DNA of 64,000 nucleotides from an uncultured Acidobacteriota bacterium (GTDB taxonomy: Bacteria > Acidobacteriota > Thermoanaerobaculia > UBA5066 > Gp7-AA6): NCBI GenBank assembly GCA_963764715.1, contig CAVXTP010000001.1:37532-101531 (forward strand). The letters are read 5' to 3'. The notes under the pieces are model-generated. The model was given only the letters and a program-made list of their open reading frames with translations, had not been told where the DNA came from and made no database searches. Shown here piece by piece: positions 27,627-57,633 of this stretch (its first letter is position 1; every line of letters starts with the position of its first letter). The position numbers and the translations under genes were made by a program.

Positions 27627-27716
27627 GGAGAGGTGCTGGAGTGGTTGATCAGGCCGGTCTCGAAAACCGGTAGGCCCGAAAGGGTCTCGTGGGTTCAAAT
27701 CCCACCCTCTCCGCCA
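27627..27716 (+). tRNA. tRNA-Ser (CGA)
   Basis: GGAGAGGTG...CCGGT CTCGAAA ACCGG, long variable arm, GGTTCAAATCCCACCCTCTCCGCCA. Confidence 0.96.
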
Positions 27717-28090
27717 CTACTACTGCCTCGCGACAGTCGTGGGTTCACCCGACCACCAGCGGCAGACCCCCGGCAGTAGGGAGCCGTCCACCAGAGATCG
27801 ACCCCCGATCTTAGGCAACGCTGGCCGAAGGCCAGCGGTAACCCACGCTGCGCGAAGCGCAGCGGTAAATCCCACCCTCTCCGCCACTAATGTTGCCTCG
27901 AGACAGTCGTGGGTTCGCCCGACCACCAGAGGCAGACCCCCGGCAGCAGGGAGCCGTCCACCAGAGATCGACCCCCGATCTTAGGCAACGCTGGCCGAAG
28001 GCCAGCGGTAACCCACGCTGCGCGAAGCGCAGCGGTAAATCCCACCCTCTCCGCCATTATTGCTCCTCGAGAGAGTCGTGGGGTCGGCGC
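27717..28090 (+). repeat. tRNA-Ser-linked tandem repeat: two 170-bp units plus a partial third
   Basis: Units 27717-27886 and 27887-28056 are near identical; each ends in the tRNA 3' 20 nt AAATCCCACCCTCTCCGCCA. Confidence 0.95.
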
Positions 28091-30810: not shown

Positions 30811-30885
30811 GGCCCATTCGTCTAACGGTTAGGACGCGGCCCTCTCAAGGCCGAAATACGGGTTCGATTCCCGTATGGGCTACCA
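30811..30885 (+). tRNA. tRNA-Glu (CTC)
   Basis: GGCCCATTCGTCTAACGGTTAGGACGCGGCCCTCTCAAGGCCG...GGTTCGATTCCCGTATGGGCTACCA. Confidence 0.96.
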
Positions 30886-31055
30886 GCTCCCCGCCGCTTC
30901 GTTATTAGCCCGCCGCGTCCTCCGGACGCGACCCTCTCAAGGCGGCTTCCTTTGAGCGCGCCCTTCCGGGCGCGACACGGGTTCGATTAGCGCCGGGCGG
31001 ACCCGGCGCTTGTCGCGGCGCTTTCGCGCCGCTCGGTGCCCCGTATGGGCTACCA
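30886..31055 (+). repeat. tRNA-Glu-derived repeat copy 1 (170-bp unit)
   Basis: Contains CCCTCTCAAGGC, ACGGGTTCGATT and CCCGTATGGGCTACCA separated by hairpin insertions. Confidence 0.92.
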
Positions 31056-31154
31056 GATCTCCCCGCGCTGTCAGCTCCCGCCGACGGGGGTCAACGCTGC
31101 TTTCCTGCAGCGTCACGTCGGCACAGGATTGCAGCGTTGACCCTGTTCACCTGT

Positions 31155-31688
31155 TTACCGGTCCTGCTCCTGCGGGACGCGAACGATGCGCGAGACGTCG
31201 TAACCCTGCTCGCCGACCAGCGCGAGGAGGCGCGCGTAGTCGGCCTCTGGAATGCGCGGAGTGCGCGCCATGATCCAGACGTGATCGCGCTTGTTGCGGC
31301 TGATGATGGTGGTGGAGTAGTCCTCGTCCAGGTACGTGATCAGGTACTCCGCCTCGATCGGCCACACGAACTGCATGCCCCAGGTGGCGTTGGTGCGCTT
31401 GTCGCGCACGTACCCCCTGGGCGTGTAGCGCTTCGGTTTGCCGTCGAAGCCGCCCTTGCGGAAGGTGAAGGTCGTCTCCACGACGCCGTCCGGGCGCAGG
31501 CGGTACGACTCGATGGCGGCGTAGGCGCCCTTCTCGAGCGAGGTCGGGATGCTGGCGATGACGTACCAGTCCCCCATGAACCTCGCGAGATCCACGTGGT
31601 CCACGGTCTTCAGCGGCCGTAGCGCGGAGGTCGAGCATCCCGTCGCGGCGACGAGGAGGCCCGCCAGGAGGAAGCGGGCGCCGGCCAC
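31155..31688 (-). CDS. Lipocalin (Blc-like) lipoprotein
   Basis: Lipobox ATGC; VDLARFMGDWYVIA; WIMARTP. Confidence 0.88.
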   Translation of the reverse strand: MAGARFLLAGLLVAATGCSTSALRPLKTVDHVDLARFMGDWYVIASIPTSLEKGAYAAIESYRLRPDGVVETTFTFRKGGFDGKPKRYTPRGYVRDKRTNATWGMQFVWPIEAEYLITYLDEDYSTTIISRNKRDHVWIMARTPRIPEADYARLLALVGEQGYDVSRIVRVPQEQDR

Positions 31689-31692
31689 GATT

Positions 31693-32355
31693 TCAGAGCA
31701 GTTCGTAGAGGAGGCGGTGGCCGCCTTCGAGCTGCGACTCCAGGCCGAGCCAGCCTCCGCCGGGCGCGTACCAGAGGTCGATCGCCATGCCCGGCGCCTT
31801 CAGCCGGTATCGTTCCGCCCGGGTCACCGCGCCGCGCACCGGGAACGTCTCCTCGCCCAGCGGTTGCACCTCGACGGCCACGAGTTCGCCCGTCTGGCTG
31901 TTCAGCAGCGACGAGCGCTCGAGGAACTCCGGGTTCCAGTAGGCGAAAGAGCTGACGCAGGACGGCCCTGCTCGCCGCGCGCCCCGGCTTTCGACGAGGA
32001 ATTGATTCCCGGCCGAGGCCCCGCGCACTTCGTACGTTCTGCCGTTGTCGTCGGTGCGCGACTGGATGCTGGCCAGACAGCGATCGTCCCAGACCTCCAC
32101 GGCCTCGTGCCGGTACTCGTAGGCCGTGACGAAGAGGAGCTTGACCTTGAGCGCGGCCTCGCTCCGAAGCACTTTCCGCGAGCCCTCGGTCCGGAGAACG
32201 AAGTCGTGACGCCCCACCTCGCGCCCGTCGAGGAGAACGCGGAAGCGCCATTGCTGCGTCGGCTCCGCGTCCGCCCGGGCGGCCCGCGCCCCGTTCGGAG
32301 TGATCGCGCCGAGCACGGCCAGCGCGAGTGCGGCCAGAACGTTCCGCGACTTCAT
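31693..32355 (-). CDS. Secreted protein, DUF6134-like
   Basis: Signal peptide from MKSRNVLAAL; FRVLLDGREVGRH; YEYRHEAVEVW; LLNSQTGE. Confidence 0.7.
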   Translation of the reverse strand: MKSRNVLAALALAVLGAITPNGARAARADAEPTQQWRFRVLLDGREVGRHDFVLRTEGSRKVLRSEAALKVKLLFVTAYEYRHEAVEVWDDRCLASIQSRTDDNGRTYEVRGASAGNQFLVESRGARRAGPSCVSSFAYWNPEFLERSSLLNSQTGELVAVEVQPLGEETFPVRGAVTRAERYRLKAPGMAIDLWYAPGGGWLGLESQLEGGHRLLYELL

Positions 32356-32681
32356 GCGAGCCCCCTCCTGACTGCCAGGAGCCGGCATTCTCCTCGACCT
32401 GGGGCTCGATGCGTGCAGGTTGTCCAGGTCGGAAAGGCCGGCGCCGCCGAGCCGTGGGGCTACCCGATCTCCCGCCCTTCCCGCCGCCCGGAGCGCCGGC
32501 GCCCGGGGCCGAGAAAGCTTTCGCCCACCAGGACCGTGACGCCGTCCGAGCGGAACGAGAAGGTGTGCCCCGCCGGGTTGTCGTCTCCGGCCGGAGGACG
32601 AATGCGGACCGGGGTGCCACCTACGCCGGCCGCCGAAGGCGTTCGATTCCCGCGAAGAACGTCGAAAGGTTCCAGGTCGCG

Positions 32682-32849
32682 CCCGTATGGGCGACCAACT
32701 CCAGCCGGCTTCGCGAGGGACGGCTGCGTCCCGCCGCAGCCCTCTCAAGGCGGCTCACTCTCAGGCGTCGCTCCGCGACGCGCGCGCCCCTTCTCGCGCG
32801 ACACGGGGTCGTTTGGCGTTGCCGCCGAGCATCGGCGTCGTGAACGCGG
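32682..32849 (+). repeat. tRNA-Glu-derived repeat copy 2 (degenerate)
   Basis: CCCGTATGGGCGACCA...GCCCTCTCAAGGCGGCT...CGCGACACGGGGTCGTTT; GTTCGATTCCCG just upstream at 32641. Confidence 0.85.
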
Positions 32850-34208
32850 TCAGAACTCGCGTGGCAGGCCCATTTTTCTCAGGCGATCGTCAAAGCGCGG
32901 ATCATCGCGCAGGCCATCCCAATCCGGTGCGACCGCCAGGTGAACCAGTGCCGGGTCGCGCTGTGCGATGGCCTGATCGAGGCAGTCGAACGCTTCATCG
33001 AGCCGGCCTGCTCCCCCGTAGATTCTGGCGCGGAAGAACGGCATCTTGAGCAACACGTCGAAGTCCAGCTGCGGGTTCGAGATTTGATCCACCCAGAATT
33101 GGCTCAGTCCGGAGAGGCCGGCCGTCGCGTACGCGTGCTGCGCTTCCGCGGTGACCTGCTTCACTACCGCCAGCCACTCTTCGGGTAAGCCGAACTCGAT
33201 GGCATTGCGGACGGCCAGGGCCGCGAATCGATCGAGGTCGACGATCTTCAAATAGACGTAGCCAATGAATTGGCACGCCTGCGCATGCTTCGGGTTGACG
33301 TCAAGCGCTCGCCGGGCCCAGCCAAGCGCGTCGTCGTACTTCCGCTGGTGCCAATACGAGATGGCGATCTGCACCAGAACGCCGGGCGATCGCGGATCGC
33401 GCGCGAGCGCCTGTTGCTTGCATCGCAGCCCGTCGTCGAGCCGCCCGAGCGCTTCCTGGAGCGACCCATACTGCAGGAGCGCCTCGGTGTGATCCGGATT
33501 GATTTCGAGCGCGCGTTGCAGGCTGCGCTCCGCCGCCGTCCAGTCCCACTCGCTGAGAAAAAGGACGGTGCCAAGGGCAACCTGCGCGTCCGCCGAGGCG
33601 CTGTCCATCGCCAGCGCGCGTAAGGCAGACGCCTTCGCCTCTGCAAACGCCTCCTGGTGCGGCACCCCGTGAGACGCTGCCAGCACGCACTGTGCGCGCG
33701 CCAGGCCGGCGTGCGCCGGCGCGTAGGTCGGATCGATCTCGATCGCGGAACGAAAGGCTTCCACGGCGGCCGGCAGTTCGAAAAACGAGTCGGACAACAG
33801 GTGAGACCGGCCGCGGCCGACAAGCTCGTAAAGTTCGACGGGTCGCGCCACGGCGCTCGATACGAATGGCCTCTCGTCCTCCGAATCAACCCTGACTGCA
33901 GCGATGAAGCGGTACCCGGACCCCGCCACCGTTTCGATATAGATCGGCCGGTGGGCGTCCTCGTGAAGCGCCTTGCGCAGCGCCGACATGTGAACCGTGA
34001 GACCGCCTTCTTCGACGAATGACTCGGGCCAGATGCGCTTCAGCAATTCGTCCTTCGTGACCAGGCGGCCCCGCTGTCGTACCAACGCAACCAGCACATC
34101 GTAGGCCTTCGGTGACACGCGGACGACTTCCGCGCCGCGCAGGAGCCGCCGCTCTCGCACGTCGAGCGTGAATTCGTCGAAATGAAATACCTCACTGCTG
34201 GTGGCCAT
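32850..34208 (-). CDS. Winged-helix (OmpR/CadC-type) regulator with TPR repeats
   Basis: LVTKDELLKRIWP...LRKAL...IETVAGSGYRF, followed by TPR helices. Confidence 0.9.
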   Translation of the reverse strand: MATSSEVFHFDEFTLDVRERRLLRGAEVVRVSPKAYDVLVALVRQRGRLVTKDELLKRIWPESFVEEGGLTVHMSALRKALHEDAHRPIYIETVAGSGYRFIAAVRVDSEDERPFVSSAVARPVELYELVGRGRSHLLSDSFFELPAAVEAFRSAIEIDPTYAPAHAGLARAQCVLAASHGVPHQEAFAEAKASALRALAMDSASADAQVALGTVLFLSEWDWTAAERSLQRALEINPDHTEALLQYGSLQEALGRLDDGLRCKQQALARDPRSPGVLVQIAISYWHQRKYDDALGWARRALDVNPKHAQACQFIGYVYLKIVDLDRFAALAVRNAIEFGLPEEWLAVVKQVTAEAQHAYATAGLSGLSQFWVDQISNPQLDFDVLLKMPFFRARIYGGAGRLDEAFDCLDQAIAQRDPALVHLAVAPDWDGLRDDPRFDDRLRKMGLPREF

Positions 34209-34293
34209 CAGATTTCGGCGAATCTTAGCAAGTCCTTAAGGACGCGTCACGGCCGGGACAGCTGTCATGAACGCGCTTTCAAAGGAGAAGAGA

Positions 34294-34827
34294 ATGATCA
34301 CCCGATCGTTGGTCGCCTTCATTCTGAGCTGCGGATTCACGGCACTCTCACTCGCGCAAGCTCCACCAGAGCCCCCGAAGCCGGGCCCCGAGCAGAAGAA
34401 GTTGGAGTACTTCCTTGGCACTTGGAGGGTGGAAGGCGAGGTTAAACCGAACGACTACATGCCGGCCGGTAAGAGTGTCATCACCGCGACATATGCATTG
34501 GGTCCGGGGGGATTCTCTGTCGAGTCCCGAGGTGAAGGGGAAAATTACCCGACGACCCACGGAATCACGGCCTACGACAGCCAGGCGAAGCTCTACACGA
34601 CATTTTATGCGAGCAGTGCCGGACTCGTGGGTGGCGGCACAGCAACGGTTGACGGAAATACCTGGACGTGGATGCTTGAAGACAAGTGGCTTGGCCAAGC
34701 ATTCAGAGGAAGAACGACAGTCACCGTCAAATCGGCGTCTCAGTACACGGCCAAGTATGAATATCTCGACCCGAACGGCAGTTATGTAACGCTCGTAGAA
34801 AGCACCGCCACCAAAGTCGCGCCTTAG
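34294..34827 (+). CDS. Secreted protein, DUF1579-like
   Basis: Signal peptide; KPGPEQKKLEYFLGTW; lower GC than the flanks. Confidence 0.7.
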   Translation: MITRSLVAFILSCGFTALSLAQAPPEPPKPGPEQKKLEYFLGTWRVEGEVKPNDYMPAGKSVITATYALGPGGFSVESRGEGENYPTTHGITAYDSQAKLYTTFYASSAGLVGGGTATVDGNTWTWMLEDKWLGQAFRGRTTVTVKSASQYTAKYEYLDPNGSYVTLVESTATKVAP

Positions 34828-35080
34828 AGACGCAGACACCAGCCGTTCGAAGTGGAGCAGAACCTGGTCCTCGCCCTAGAAGCGAAGCGGGCTCGCCTCC
34901 CAGATCCGGACTTGGCGTCTTATCCGAACCAGCTTCTCGATGCCTGCAGCGAGGTCTGGCAGGGGTTCACGGCGATCCTGGAACACGGCTTTCCAGGTCA
35001 ACCTTCAGTCTTCCCAGCTGCGTGAGCCAGTCTTGGATCTGGTTTCAGCTGGGGCCAGATCAACCCCACTCCAAGTCTCA

Positions 35081-35210
35081 CGCCGCGTCCTGCGGATGCA
35101 GCCCTCTCAAGATGGCTGCCTTTGAGCGCGCCCTTTCGGGCGCGACACGGGTGAAATTGGCGCCGGGGGGTACCCGGCGCCTTGTGTCTGCTCTTCGCGC
35201 GCTCGCGCGC
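35081..35210 (+). repeat. tRNA-Glu-derived repeat copy 3
   Basis: CGCCGCGTCCTGCGGATGCAGCCCTCTCAAG...CCTTTGAGCGCGCCCTTTCGGGCGCGACACGGGT...GGCGCCGGG...ACCCGGCGCC aligns with 30911-31010. Confidence 0.9.
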
Positions 35211-35229
35211 TCTCCCCGGAGGGGGACCC

Positions 35230-35694
35230 CTACTTCACCGTGAACGTCTTCGAAGGCCCGGGTTTCCCGTCCACCGTGGTTTCGACCTTGTAGCTGCCCT
35301 TCGGCCAGCCCGACGGCTTCTGGATCGAGAACTCCGTCGTCGCCGGACCCGTGGGCGCGATGGTCCTCGAGTCTTCCTTGACCACCTGTCCATCGCCGAA
35401 GGTCCACTTCACCGCGATCACCGAAGCGGCCGCCGAGCCGTCCGTCGATACGGCGGCAAAGATCGTGTCTTTCGGCGAAAACGTGTCGGTCGGCGCCTGG
35501 ACCTTCTTGTCGGGTCCGAGGGACTTCCCGAGCGAGAGATCCGTGACGGTGACGGCGGGGGCCGGGACGGCCGTCGGCACGACCGGGACGGGGGTGGGCA
35601 TCGGGGCCGGGGCCTCTGCCTTCTTGCATGCGCTCAGAGCGACCGCCGAAGCCAGGACTGCCGCCACGAGGGCGGCGTGAGTACGTGTCGTCAT
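35230..35694 (-). CDS. Hypothetical lipoprotein
   Basis: Lipobox LSAC, Pro-rich linker, beta-rich domain. Confidence 0.8.
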   Translation of the reverse strand: MTTRTHAALVAAVLASAVALSACKKAEAPAPMPTPVPVVPTAVPAPAVTVTDLSLGKSLGPDKKVQAPTDTFSPKDTIFAAVSTDGSAAASVIAVKWTFGDGQVVKEDSRTIAPTGPATTEFSIQKPSGWPKGSYKVETTVDGKPGPSKTFTVK

Positions 35695-35728
35695 CTGCTC
35701 TCCTTCTGCCTGGGAACGGCGCTGCCGC

Positions 35729-35995
35729 TCATTCGGGAATCCGGAGCTTCCAGCCCGGCTGGATGAGGTCCGGATTTTTCACGATGTCCCTGTTCGCTTC
35801 GAAAATCCGCTTCCACGAATTCGCGTTGCCGTAGAACTTCTTGGAAATCTTCGAGAGACTGTCTCCGCTCTGGACGACGTACGTTCGGGAGGTCTCGGCG
35901 GCCACTCCCGCCTTGTTCCCCGAGGGCGATGGCGCCGTCGACGAGCTTCCGGATTCGACGTCCGAGAAGTCCGGCTTGTTGGGGTCATCCGTCAT
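35729..35995 (-). CDS. LysM domain protein
   Basis: YVVQSGDSLSKISKKFYG...IFEANRD...NPDLIQPGWKLRIP. Confidence 0.92.
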   Translation of the reverse strand: MTDDPNKPDFSDVESGSSSTAPSPSGNKAGVAAETSRTYVVQSGDSLSKISKKFYGNANSWKRIFEANRDIVKNPDLIQPGWKLRIPE

Positions 35996-36041
35996 TCCAT
36001 CCTCCTTCTCGACCCGTTTGCCGGGTCGGCAGTGTTCGTTC

Positions 36042-36290
36042 TCACGCCGGCTTGGCCGTGAACTTCCGGTAGATCCAGGTGACGGCGATCGCGCCGATGA
36101 CCGCCACGATGATCGTATAAATCAGGCCGCCTTCCGCCTTGAAGCCGAACAGGCTCATCAGGAAGCCGCCCGCCAGAGCTCCCACGAGGCCGAGGATGAT
36201 GTCCATGAGAACTCCACCCCCGCCTCCCATGATCTTGCCGGTGAGCCATCCCGCAATCAGGCCCACGATCAGCCACCAGATGATGCCCAT
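36042..36290 (-). CDS. GlsB/YeaQ/YmgE family membrane protein
   Basis: WLIVGLIAGWLTGKIM...DIILGLVGALAGG. Confidence 0.9.
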   Translation of the reverse strand: MGIIWWLIVGLIAGWLTGKIMGGGGGVLMDIILGLVGALAGGFLMSLFGFKAEGGLIYTIIVAVIGAIAVTWIYRKFTAKPA

Positions 36291-36293
36291 GGC

Positions 36294-36806
36294 TCATCTC
36301 CTCGCCTGAGAAATCTTGGACATGAGGAGCGCCAGTGCGCCGGCGCCGATCGCCTTGACGAGCGTCGGGTGTTGCGCGTAAAAGCCCGCGGCCTTGTCCA
36401 TGATTGACGGATCTCTTGTCGCCGCCTGCCGGGCGATCGTCTGGACCGCCTCGGGGCTCACATCCTGAGCCTGCTGCGGCGTCACGCTCTGGCCGGCGAC
36501 CGCCCCGGCAAGGCCTCCGAGTCCCAGGGAACCCAGGATCTGGGAGCCGGCGGGACCGAGCGATGCGAGCAGCTGGTTGAGAAGTCCCGCTTTCTGATCG
36601 GGGTTGGACTGGCCGAAGAGCCCGGACACCATCTGCTCGAACGGCGGTGTTTGATCGGACTTGAAGGCGTGACCGAGGCCGGCCGCGAGGCTCCCCTGCG
36701 GAACGGCGGAGGCCACTTGATCGTAGGCCGCGTGCACGTCGGAGTCCGATGCACTGCCACGGGTGAACTGATCGACGATGCTGCCGAGGTTATCCATAAG
36801 ACCCAT
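36294..36806 (-). CDS. Hypothetical protein
   Basis: AGGAG RBS before ATG at 36806; co-oriented with the downstream cluster. Confidence 0.75.
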   Translation of the reverse strand: MGLMDNLGSIVDQFTRGSASDSDVHAAYDQVASAVPQGSLAAGLGHAFKSDQTPPFEQMVSGLFGQSNPDQKAGLLNQLLASLGPAGSQILGSLGLGGLAGAVAGQSVTPQQAQDVSPEAVQTIARQAATRDPSIMDKAAGFYAQHPTLVKAIGAGALALLMSKISQARR

Positions 36807-37010
36807 GGCGTCCTCCTTACGATTCGATGATTCGTCGACATCGAGAAACACGCCGGCGAAACAGCGACAGTGGCGTTCGCCGTCCGCGACCTCGAGGAAC
36901 CGAGTCTATAACCGGTTCCTAACCCCACCTCGAACGTGCCGGGGGGCAGGACCGGGCCGCCGTCCGCCGCAAGATCCTTTAAGAATCTTTCGACGTGGTT
37001 CCATCTCGGG

Positions 37011-37143
37011 CCCGTATGAGCTACTTGCTCTCTGCCGCTTCGTTAGTTACCCGCCGCGTCCTGCGGTCACGACCCTCTCAAGGCGAATCCCTTTGAGCGC
37101 GCCCTTTCGGGCTCGATACGGGTTCGATTCCGGCATGTGTTCC
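37011..37143 (+). repeat. tRNA-Glu-derived repeat copy 4
   Basis: CCCGTATGAGCTAC...GCCGCTTCGTTA...CCCGCCGCGTCC...GACCCTCTCAAGGCG...CCTTTGAGCGCGCCCTTTCGGG...TACGGGTTCGATTCC aligns with 30870-30988. Confidence 0.92.
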
Positions 37144-37164
37144 GAAAGCGGCTTCAAAGAGATA

Positions 37165-37376
37165 ATGGTCGTGTGAAGCACTCGTCGCCCAACCGCCGAC
37201 CTCAGTCGGCTGCCGCAAAAGCTCGTGTCAAGGCCCTGAGTCGCGGCGAGGCGCCGGTCGTGCGCGACCCGGAGGAGGCTCGAGGGCTCCCCTTCGTATC
37301 CCCGGCCGAACGCCAGGCGGCGTTTGCCATGGCGGCCAGGAAACGGGCAGCCGAAGAGAAGCGCCGGAAGAAGTAG
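37165..37376 (+). CDS. Small basic hypothetical protein
   Basis: Short ORF after repeat copy 4; start uncertain. Confidence 0.4.
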
Positions 37377-56491: not shown

Positions 56492-57633
56492 ATGAGCTCC
56501 CGCGGTTCGGCCTCGGTCGAGCTGCGCCCGGGAGCGGGCGCGGGACGGGGCGCCGTCCTGCGCTCTCGCCGGCCCCTTCGACGTCTCGACGGCCGCCGCG
56601 GCGCGCCGGCAGATCCTCGAGGCCCTCGGCGGAGCGCGGCCCGCCGCTCTCGAGGTCGACGCGAGCGGCATCGACCGCGGCGACGTCTCGGGGATGGCCC
56701 TGCTCTACGAGCTCGCGCAGGGACGGCTGCTGCCCGGCGTGCGCGCTCCGGTCAAGGGCCTGCGCCCCGAGTTCCAGACGCTGCTGGCGGCCTTTCCGAC
56801 GCCGGAGGCTCTCGACGCGCTGGCGGCGCCGCCGGAGAAGCGAGGCTTCTTCCGCGAGGTCGGGGCCGCCACGCGGTCGATGTTCGCGGACCTCGGCGCG
56901 CAGATGTCCTTCATCGGCGGCGTCGTCCTGGGGTTCGCCGCCGTGCTGCGGCGTCCGCGCCTCATGCGCTGGCGCGAGGTCGCGGTCGTCTTCGAGAAGG
57001 CCGGCGTCAACGCCCTGCCGATCGTCTCGCTCATCAGTCTTCTCATGGGCCTCGTCATCGCGTTCGAGGCCGCGCAGCCCCTCGAGATGTTCGGCGCCCA
57101 GATCTTCATCGCCGACATGATCGGCCTCGTCATGGTCCGCGAGTTCTCGCCGATCTTCACGGCGATCATCTTCGCCGGGCGCTCGGGCTCGGCCTTCGCC
57201 GCCGAGATCGGCACCATGAAGGTCAACGAGGAGTTGAACGCCCTCGAGACGATGGGCCTCGACCCGATGCGCTTCCTCGTGATCCAGCGCGTCTTCGCCG
57301 GGACGATGCTGATGCCGGTCCTCGCGGCCTACTCGATGGTCCTCGGCGTCTTCGGCGGCGTCCTCGTCATGCTGACGATGGGCTTCCCGCTCGCCCAGAT
57401 CTGGGGCCAGCTCGAGGGCGCCCTCCACGTTCGGGACGTCGTCGTCGGGAGTCTCGAAGTCGTTCGTCTTCGGGGCGATCGTCGCCGGCCTCGGCTGCCT
57501 GCGCGGGATGCAGACGAAGGAGGGCCCCAACGCCGTCGGCGACTCGACGACCCGCGCCGTGGTGGCGGGGATCCTCATGATCATCGTCGTGGACGCCGTC
57601 TACAGCGTCATCACCTACGTGCTGCACGTATGA
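56492..57633 (+). CDS. MlaE-family ABC permease with N-terminal STAS-like domain (frameshifts)
   Basis: AGRSGSAFAAEIGTMKVNEELNALETMGLDP; AVGDSTTRAVV. Confidence 0.85.

Follow-up and report, generated by a model that had tools for sequence, protein, structure and literature searches.

A tRNA-Glu-anchored array of hairpin-expanded tRNA mimics and integrase-less cassettes in an uncultured soil Acidobacteriota genome

Transfer RNA genes are classic landing sites for genomic islands, and such islands normally carry their own integrase. The islands at ssrA in Dehalococcoides reportedly stand in tandem, with short repeats of the ssrA 3' end between them, and encode their own integrases. These ssrA-specific genomic islands are integrated at one small-RNA gene and mobilised site-specifically (PMC3146451). 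Cis-mobilizable elements (CIMEs) lack integration and transfer genes, keep both attachment (att) sites, attL and attR, and are lined up in tandem where their target gene has its 3' end; by definition they are decayed integrative and conjugative or integrative and mobilizable elements (ICEs or IMEs), are kilobases long and rely on a related integrase-bearing neighbour (PMC5704250). In Prochlorococcus, successive integrations at tRNA-adjacent islands push older elements inward and scatter partial tRNAs, gain, loss and inversion are confined to the island, and the tycheposons found there have tyrosine recombinases, replication modules and attachment sites of about 40 nt (10.1101/2020.12.28.424599). 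Here we describe a locus in a 64,000-nt stretch, called the window below, of contig C1 of an uncultured soil Acidobacteriota genome. Behind an intact tRNA-Glu(CTC) gene the window holds four direct copies of a tRNA-Glu-derived module, and between them lie three blocks of mutually unrelated genes. Our results suggest, with a confidence that we put at about even, that the locus is a tRNA-Glu-anchored hotspot of integrase-less, att-flanked cassettes, at which an unlinked enzyme recombines DNA site-specifically within the tRNA-derived module.

All positions are window coordinates unless a contig or locus is named; G and L numbers are our codes for genomes and loci, and f and g numbers label families and genera. 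ARAGORN and Rfam concur on the anchoring tRNA-Glu(CTC) at 30811-30885 on the forward strand (Rfam tRNA, 64.3 bits). Direct reading, a repeat finder and MAFFT alignment recovered all four direct copies that a preliminary description of this DNA had pointed out, with the anticodon box, a GC hairpin and the 5' half of the T-arm. We divide each module into a 5' part, U5, and a 3'-end copy, U3, which repeats the last 16 nt of the tRNA. U5 starts with a variable leader. Hairpin A follows, with a GC stem of 6 bp that goes back to the D-arm region, then comes the invariant anticodon-loop box CCCTCTCAAGGCG, then hairpin B where the tRNA has its variable arm, and finally the 5' half of the T-stem with the T-loop. 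U3, CCCGTATGGGCTACCA, comprises the 3' half of the T-stem, the 3' strand of the acceptor stem and CCA. All these parts lie on the forward strand. The U5 of unit 1 (30886-30988; nhmmer model positions 12-103) is parted from its U3 (31040-31055; repeat family D5), which is also the left direct repeat of cassette 1, by a 51-nt filler of two hairpins in the T-loop (30989-31039). The same class of filler occupies the last tandem unit of five relatives; six genomes in total have it in the same place. U3 copy 2 (32682-32697) precedes the U5 of unit 2 (32698-32814; MAFFT, nhmmer), which has one additional hairpin. In unit 3 (U5 at 35054-35158) the T-loop is mutated and the preceding U3 is mostly deleted, although it is intact in relatives, including locus L052. 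U3 copy 4 (37011-37026) is decayed, and the T-loop of unit 4 (U5 at 37027-37129) is fused to the downstream flank, a junction that recurs in G055 (L052:2084). The 3'-end copies reported earlier are thus found at 31040, 32682 and 37011, but two of the copy starts given there, 32682 and 37011, are U3 copies just before units 2 and 4, and the U5s after the first begin at 32698, 35054 and 37027.

Cassette 1 (31056-32681) reads on the reverse strand and holds a lipocalin gene (31155-31688) and a DUF6134 gene (31693-32355), two decayed relics of the tRNA 3' part (32455-32475 and 32628-32652) and, immediately 5' of 32682, a conserved right-end box. Cassette 2 (32815-35053) uses both strands: a winged-helix/TPR regulator (Trans_reg_C-TPR; 32850-34208, reverse) is followed by a secreted DUF1579 protein (34267-34827, forward), with the right-end box at about 35010-35053. 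Cassette 3 (35159-37010, reverse) starts with a terminator-like GC hairpin (35159-35181), continues with genes for a PKD-like lipoprotein (35230-35694), a LysM protein (35729-35995), a Transgly_assoc protein (36042-36290) and a protein of no assigned family (36294-36851), and ends in a right-end box at about 36966-37010. These Pfam assignments agree with the earlier statement that the modules are unrelated, and they identify the low-GC secreted protein mentioned there as DUF1579, its gene having a GC content of 0.55 against 0.63-0.73 around it. An ABC-2 transporter pair lies upstream of the array; downstream are a 79-aa open reading frame (ORF) of no family (37137-37376, forward) and a gene of the PEP-mutase family.

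If this locus is a capture platform, as had been proposed, gene content and order between the same flanks should differ among relatives, and a comparison of 12 large loci of genus g1 demonstrates that they do. The ABC transporter/tRNA-Glu flank is retained in 11 of the 12, the twelfth (L024) being an ectopic array, and the 79-aa ORF, found 1.6-9.9 kb behind the tRNA in seven relatives and past an inverted block in an eighth (G006), marks the right-hand limit of the variable region in these eight loci. Between the flanks Pfam finds, depending on the relative, ArsR with an SRPBCC-type protein, Rce1-like, DUF1801, MarC, DUF1254/DUF1214, P450 and DUF6768 proteins and hydrolases. The winged helix-turn-helix (wHTH)/DUF1579 cassette, which is cassette 2 of the window, occurs in nine relatives at 87-95% identity, but its position and orientation change. 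In G023 a different cassette precedes it, in G006 it adjoins the tRNA as part of a block that is inverted as a whole, and in G022 it is inverted. Because the copies in G023 and G006 bring the leader type of unit 2 with them, this U5 moves along with the wHTH cassette. The ArsR/SRPBCC cassette of G017 is matched at 96.1-98.3% identity in six further genomes, including G077, which belongs to another genus. When G017 is compared with G023, by contrast, identity in the pair of adjacent ABC genes is no higher than 84.9% and 88.2%, which indicates recent horizontal exchange. Even the order of cassettes is not fixed, as ArsR precedes wHTH in G023 and G051 and follows it in G055 and G077. Metagenome contigs of related strains, from runs that contain at most 21% of the sequence words, add a locus that lacks cassette 1 (joint 31017 to 32682), loci that lack the filler or have 7-9 nt in its place (joints 30981 to 31041 and 30986 to 31040) and inversions at units (32534/32785). 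A lineage of abundant soil Acidobacteriota keeps a structured, repeated tRNA mimic beside which regulator, lipocalin, envelope and ArsR-type cassettes are exchanged across species and genera. Two further observations concern G023. Its wHTH/DUF1579 cassette has a 335-nt insertion in the right part (L023:10577-10910), flanked by a 6-nt direct repeat and containing an element like the repetitive extragenic palindromes (REP). The ectopic Glu-type array (L024:9430-9710) consists of a right-end box, a U3 and two units, has no tRNA-Glu, and lies about 6 kb from a tRNA-Lys(CTT) gene, at the far end of an island with a truncated integrase.

The preliminary description had also predicted that breakpoints would map to the repeats, and they map to U3, the T-loop and the anticodon box. 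When breakpoints are taken as the positions where matches to the unit stop, 29 informative 3'-truncated units are available. In 15 of them the match ends at model positions 101-104, immediately behind the T-loop, and what follows downstream is one of some ten unrelated partners, the filler class of the six genomes being among them; three stop just past the anticodon box, and the others are scattered. Williams is said to have recognised in 2002 that the junction sub-sites of integrases in tRNA genes are the anticodon loop, the T-loop and the extreme 3' end. Of the truncations seen here, 15 lie in the T-loop and three after the anticodon box, and the units of family f3 begin at the anticodon stem. 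On the other side, a conserved right-end box of about 45 nt closes the cassettes and abuts U3 with a spacer of 7-8 nt. About 25 true copies of this box stand behind unrelated cargo, two of them in genus g15 next to a U3 of the tRNA-Glu(UUC) type, and direct U3 repeats of the tRNA 3' part flank the cargo in the window and in all relatives. Judged from these sequences, a cassette is describable as cargo with an optional U5 in front and a right-end box behind, the whole lying between direct repeats of U3. T-loops also hold short fillers of 5-7 nt, whose last bases are those of cassette right ends and which look like leftovers of a loss. In antisense the right-end box reads as a short conserved peptide, with a stop at 17-19 codons in most copies, at 8 in one and not within 37 codons in two others. 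At E up to 10 it is matched in 44 of the 105 family genomes. The box may encode a micro-protein or serve as a binding site. We considered whether the box is the tail of a longer protein and rejected it: the long open frames over the box are antisense to real genes, and the database gave a single 127-aa call, which merely reads through antisense units, and no protein of similar length.

In this genome the module itself is confined to the one locus. An nhmmer search with the four units returns only these four in the whole genome (4.36 Mb, 26 contigs), and a covariance model built from 27 diverse units, a scan that the preliminary description had suggested, finds the same four. Its only further hits are the pair of tRNA-Glu genes, at 55 and 38 bits, and, at 33 bits, a unit that derives from tRNA-Glu(UUC). 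With such specificity in both searches the repeats are neither chance matches nor a dispersed family. Rfam recognises no family but tRNA in the stretch, at gathering score or at E up to 5, and the units are called neither by ARAGORN nor by the Rfam tRNA model RF00005, even at E up to 5, so that no tRNA model accepts them as a canonical cloverleaf. No IMG/VR viral contig matches the exact unit pattern. A DNA search with unit 1 gave matches in 29 of 41 related genomes. Of the 33 locus records, 32 are labelled as metagenome-assembled genomes of Acidobacteriota/Thermoanaerobaculia, and the remaining one is a 3.8-kb contig labelled Fimbriimonadaceae. We then set the covariance model at 60 bits or more, true tRNA-Glu genes scoring about 50-56 bits, and surveyed 151 sampled genomes of the class. 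Units were found in 15, namely in 12 of 18 genomes of f1 and 3 of 3 of f3, as against 0 of 16 in f2 and 0 of 114 in all other families; two of the positives, G030 and G095, are unpublished. Thus both the scans of the genome itself and the class survey bear out the tie of the element to tRNA-Glu.

In relatives within Thermoanaerobaculia, units without cargo follow directly 3' of tRNA-Glu as perfect head-to-tail arrays with a period of 95-130 nt and from one to at least eight units: five of 119 nt in G017, four of 118 nt in G019, five in G015, four in G012 and, by the covariance model, eight in G115. At its 3' end each empty unit reproduces exactly the T-arm and CCA terminus of the tRNA resident at that locus. 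The unit of f3 is 95 nt long (for instance in locus L037 of G030), and the units of g1 have a decayed 5' acceptor strand and anticodon stem. G028 differs in that two longer units lie upstream of the tRNA, with a copy of the promoter region and the 5' half of the tRNA kept; the 5' strand of their acceptor stem is preserved, their anticodon stem has 5 bp and their variable arm is long. Since the units share a derived GGCG after the loop and hairpin B, both of which are absent from the tRNA, they are homologous to one another. In the 27 diverse units the anticodon-loop box, the T-arm and the CCA end are invariant. A structure of three helices pairs in 97.4% of cells and has a covariation score that was reached by 0 of 500 shuffles, only four pairs varying on both sides. 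Hairpin B shows compensatory changes, in that two of its pairs switch from C:G to G:C, in 5 and 2 of the 27 sequences, while there is almost no variation in hairpin A, the anticodon box or the T-arm, which are therefore uninformative on structure. One hairpin is thus backed by covariation, and these alignments fit a folded RNA and a folded DNA strand equally. Of the earlier idea that hairpin-expanded tRNA relics serve as sites, the tRNA-derived hairpin units hold up; that they act as folded hairpin sites is not demonstrated by the covariation of one hairpin.

No recombinase was found in cis. Contig C1 has no match to tyrosine recombinases, serine recombinases or Y1 transposases, in keeping with the earlier remark that the window has no integrase; no search of the window was aimed at cas genes or at further transposase families. 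None of 80 ORFs from ten tRNA-Glu-anchored loci of g1 has an integrase or transposase domain, nor is there among them the integrase that tRNA islands have at the tRNA-side end. In the genome as a whole, PF00589 matches are confined to contigs C22 and C17 and comprise two Xer-like genes, integrases beside tRNA-Leu(CAA) and tRNA-Pro(CGG), and one integron integrase; serine recombinases were not found, and five Y1_Tnp matches all lie off contig C1. There is no PF00589 match near the arrays of G000, G016, G017, G019 and G058 or near the tRNA-Glu-anchored array of G023, where the sole match near a Glu-type array is the truncated gene 3.2 kb from the ectopic array, in the island behind tRNA-Lys(CTT). 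A recombinase of about 400 aa occurs at about 120-125 bits in G017, G023 and G058. The co-occurring tyrosine recombinase that the preliminary description had suggested looking for was therefore absent from the neighbourhood of tRNA-Glu arrays in the six genomes searched with PF00589 and in the 105 family genomes searched with the G023 gene, and no integrase-bearing related element at the same site, of the kind that would act as helper of a CIME, was found in the genomes searched.

The reading that we favour is that a recombinase encoded elsewhere would join and separate DNA at the U3, T-loop and anticodon-box positions, by which cassettes would be inserted, lost, inverted and reordered. The tRNA-like modules would accumulate as cargo-free tandem arrays and so provide additional places for landing, with no damage to the true tRNA, and the empty arrays may grow and shrink through recombination between units. 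Several points tell against it. Simple integration does not yield perfect tandem units that are free of cargo. Junctions in the T-loop have no duplicated overlap on the right side, in contrast to a classical T-loop crossover, and the left ends of cassettes are heterogeneous, lying after CCA or in the T-loop depending on the genome, even for the same cassette. No excised or circular form was observed inside a single population, the metagenome evidence consisting of contigs of related strains. No recombinase could be linked to the arrays, either by PF00589 in the six genomes or by the query over the 105 family genomes, in which the relatives of the truncated G023 integrase are ordinary tRNA-side integrases and never lie near Glu loci; the 80 ORFs were chosen by our own rule based on GC at third codon positions (GC3), so that genes may have been missed. 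The integrase right behind tRNA-Glu in G028, the sole one that adjoins a tRNA-Glu, proved to be an integron integrase (472 bits against a cut-off of 265) with an attC array of its own.

Among the other explanations, one needs no dedicated recombinase. DNA uptake and RecA-dependent homologous recombination would exchange the cassettes, the units and end boxes (100-170 nt) acting as homology arms and unequal crossing-over changing the number of tandem units. This would account for the concerted evolution of the units, which are near-identical inside a genome and different between genomes, for a U3 that is always the resident tRNA's own variant, for inversions and deletions that sit between repeats, and for the failure to find a recombinase. 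It would hardly account for 15 of 29 truncations falling into a window of four T-loop positions with about ten unrelated partners, for the three after the anticodon box, or for a right-end box that is unrelated to the unit and conserved behind unrelated cargo, and we consider it unlikely. Dead remains of successive integrase-carrying islands at tRNA-Glu, with the integrases lost and nothing mobile now, would explain the decay in the window (unit 3 in its T-loop, the fourth U3 copy and the two relics, at 32455 and 32628), and partial tRNA copies scattered over tRNA-side islands are a known trace of old integrations (10.1101/2020.12.28.424599; PMC9897764). Yet the 80 ORFs hold no integrase fragment, a cassette that is 96-98% identical, also in another genus, stands beside flanking genes of about 85-88%, the cassette order is reversed between genomes, and clean empty tandem arrays are kept across two families. 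These data make the view of a dead locus very improbable.

A different enzyme has also to be weighed. An HUH transposase of the Y1 type or of the type associated with REP (RAYT) might move hairpin-ended elements, from the 51-nt filler to 2-kb cassettes, as single strands, and insert them 3' of a fixed T-loop sequence with no target duplication. Insertions at one T-loop position, in one orientation and free of duplication are what such an enzyme would produce; the filler consists of two hairpins, cassette 3 starts with a hairpin of the same kind, the cassette right ends have a common short terminal motif, and the genome does have its five Y1_Tnp matches and REP-like inserts in tRNA-Ser units. 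However, Y1 genes are absent from contig C1 and from all of the arrays examined, a hairpin is missing at most left ends of cassettes, direct U3 repeats bracketing the cassettes are unexpected, and the filler, being in the same place in the six genomes, may reflect a single old event. We regard this explanation as improbable. Improbable to a like degree, and compatible with the other readings, is the view that the units work as tRNA-like RNAs, each with a CCA end and made in one transcript with tRNA-Glu, perhaps as decoys or regulators to which a partner of tRNA-Glu binds, and that cassettes simply collect between them. It draws on the invariance of the anticodon-loop box, T-arm and CCA, on the covariation of hairpin B (two pairs, seven cells, 0 of 500 shuffles), on the promoter copy, 5' acceptor strand, 5-bp anticodon stem and long variable arm in the two G028 units, and on a comparable unit at tRNA-Glu(UUC). 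Units split in the T-loop by kilobases of genes, however, cannot yield such an RNA, and the g1 units are decayed in the 5' acceptor strand and anticodon stem and rejected by ARAGORN and the Rfam tRNA model. On balance we retain the hotspot with a recombinase acting in trans as the best explanation.

The preliminary description had called the locus an integron-like capture platform. Turnover, breakpoints at the repeats and an end box functionally reminiscent of attC speak for this part of the likeness; the locus has, on the other hand, no intI, there being no PF00589 match on contig C1 or near the tRNA-Glu-anchored arrays of five relatives, no attI and no attC. A pattern scan for attC (an inverse core and core site pair around an imperfect palindrome, about 57-141 nt, with the filter relaxed to recover a true integron) gave no match in the window as against ten in the genome's own integron, and the units show tRNA-type arms rather than attC architecture. 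Because the window has no sites of the attC type that the same genome uses elsewhere, the tRNA-like units are not attC and the locus is not an integron. Nor are its cassettes co-oriented and mostly promoterless as in integrons, since their genes lie on both strands and cassette 2 has its own regulator. The genome's integron (C17:1-10600; L090) is a classical chromosomal one, with at least ten attC sites of 75-76 nt and small, co-oriented genes of lower GC between them, downstream of intI and in the same orientation; as its intI matches fall in two reading frames, a frameshift or assembly error is indicated. In G028 (L026:8050-16000) an integron integrase lies 260 nt behind tRNA-Glu and is followed by an IS110 transposase that occurs twice in a perfect 300-nt repeat; 5-7 attC-type repeats of 76 nt are found downstream of the integrase. 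As a Glu-type unit lies 20 kb beyond this integron, a whole integron may sit there as cargo in the tRNA-Glu hotspot.

The copying of tRNA tails is not restricted to tRNA-Glu. For 11 of the 56 tRNA genes in the genome, the last 20 nt have further direct copies downstream, which makes downstream tail copying a habit of this genome, and any capture logic of the Glu locus may extend to those genes. Some copies form arrays with kilobase spacing, at tRNA-Pro(CGG), tRNA-Pro(TGG) and tRNA-Ala(GGC), and some belong to single structured modules of 157-177 nt. At tRNA-Pro(CGG) (C6:8712-8788) three direct 47-nt repeats, reaching from the anticodon loop to CCA, are found at +2.7, +5.4 and +8.6 kb, the first two preceded by a common arm of about 90 nt; contig C6 has no PF00589 match, and an integrase adjoins another tRNA-Pro(CGG) on C22. 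Modules of 157-177 nt lie behind tRNA-Pro(TGG) at C11:14087, tRNA-Ala(GGC) at C19:16948 and C20:20848, and tRNA-Leu(CAG) at C22:603578. In each of them the T-arm region of the tRNA is repeated in inverted orientation, together with G-rich hairpins and a stretch from T-arm to CCA in direct orientation; they are of another type than the Glu unit. In the window itself (27627-28056), tRNA-Ser(CGA) is followed by two 170-nt units, each made of a leader and the T-arm-to-CCA part of the tRNA with a GC-rich, multi-hairpin, REP-like insert of about 120 nt in the T-loop. Such units can mislead annotation. Directly behind tRNA-Glu(TTC), ARAGORN calls a tRNA-Arg(ccg) at C22:487007-487084 that is probably not a real tRNA-Arg; the sequence is the tRNA-Glu(UUC)-derived unit, with a GC hairpin of its own and the same 3' end. 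A tRNA-Glu-derived unit can thus be called "tRNA-Arg", and antisense frames across units have been called proteins. The 90-nt tRNA-Arg(tcg) that ARAGORN calls at 57165-57254 is probably also false, because it lies inside a membrane-protein-like coding region and has no Rfam support.

In comparison with known systems, partial tRNAs in tRNA-side islands, successive integrations and integrase-less att-flanked elements are already described. A full-text literature search covering main texts returned no account of a hairpin-expanded tRNA mimic kept across two families or of its empty arrays, and none of a shared cassette end box or of cassette exchange with no recombinase in cis. The gene-less, GC-rich hairpin doublets of REP, bacterial interspersed mosaic elements (BIME) and REPIN with their RAYT resemble the 51-nt filler and the inserts of the tRNA-Ser units. 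REPINs are dispersed over the genome, whereas the Glu unit is derived from a tRNA and confined to one locus. End hairpins and duplication-free insertion at a fixed site, as in elements of the IS200/IS605 type, are seen for the filler and the left end of cassette 3, most other left ends having no hairpin. With tycheposons and other tRNA-seeded islands the locus shares its position beside a tRNA, the partial tRNA copies and a turnover confined to the island; it differs in that no recombinase was found in cis and that its repeats are longer, hairpin-expanded and tandemly amplified. CIMEs and tRNA-seeded islands come nearest among known systems. In our opinion the locus is best read as elements with att flanks and no integrase that have accreted in tandem at a tRNA gene, as with CIMEs and in islands of the ICESt1/ICESt3 type, a closer frame than the integron. 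The cassettes keep att flanks, here repeats of the tRNA 3' end, carry no integration or transfer genes and stand in tandem. Unlike CIMEs, they have no integrase-bearing neighbour that we could find, measure 1-2.5 kb and possess a dedicated end box, and their att module is a structured tRNA mimic of 95-130 nt that also forms empty arrays. Chromosomal integrons resemble the locus in having small cassettes of unrelated genes in a row, each with one conserved recombination-type end element, and a high turnover, and differ by their intI, attI and attC and by the strand and regulator arrangement noted above. Should an enzyme that acts in trans come to light, chromosomal cassette platforms would be known to run in two ways, the integron being the other, and the locus would account for part of the accessory-gene turnover in uncultured Acidobacteriota. 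We speculate, as a possible but doubtful extension, that two Thermoanaerobaculia families have an undescribed gene-capture system, in which the tRNA-Glu mimic, through its tandem copies behind the true tRNA, would offer many landing pads at once and would also move about as a recombination module, and an unlinked recombinase would shuttle small cassettes with the 45-nt end box and no recombinase gene between species. In function such a system would parallel the integron, with tRNA mimicry as its basis.

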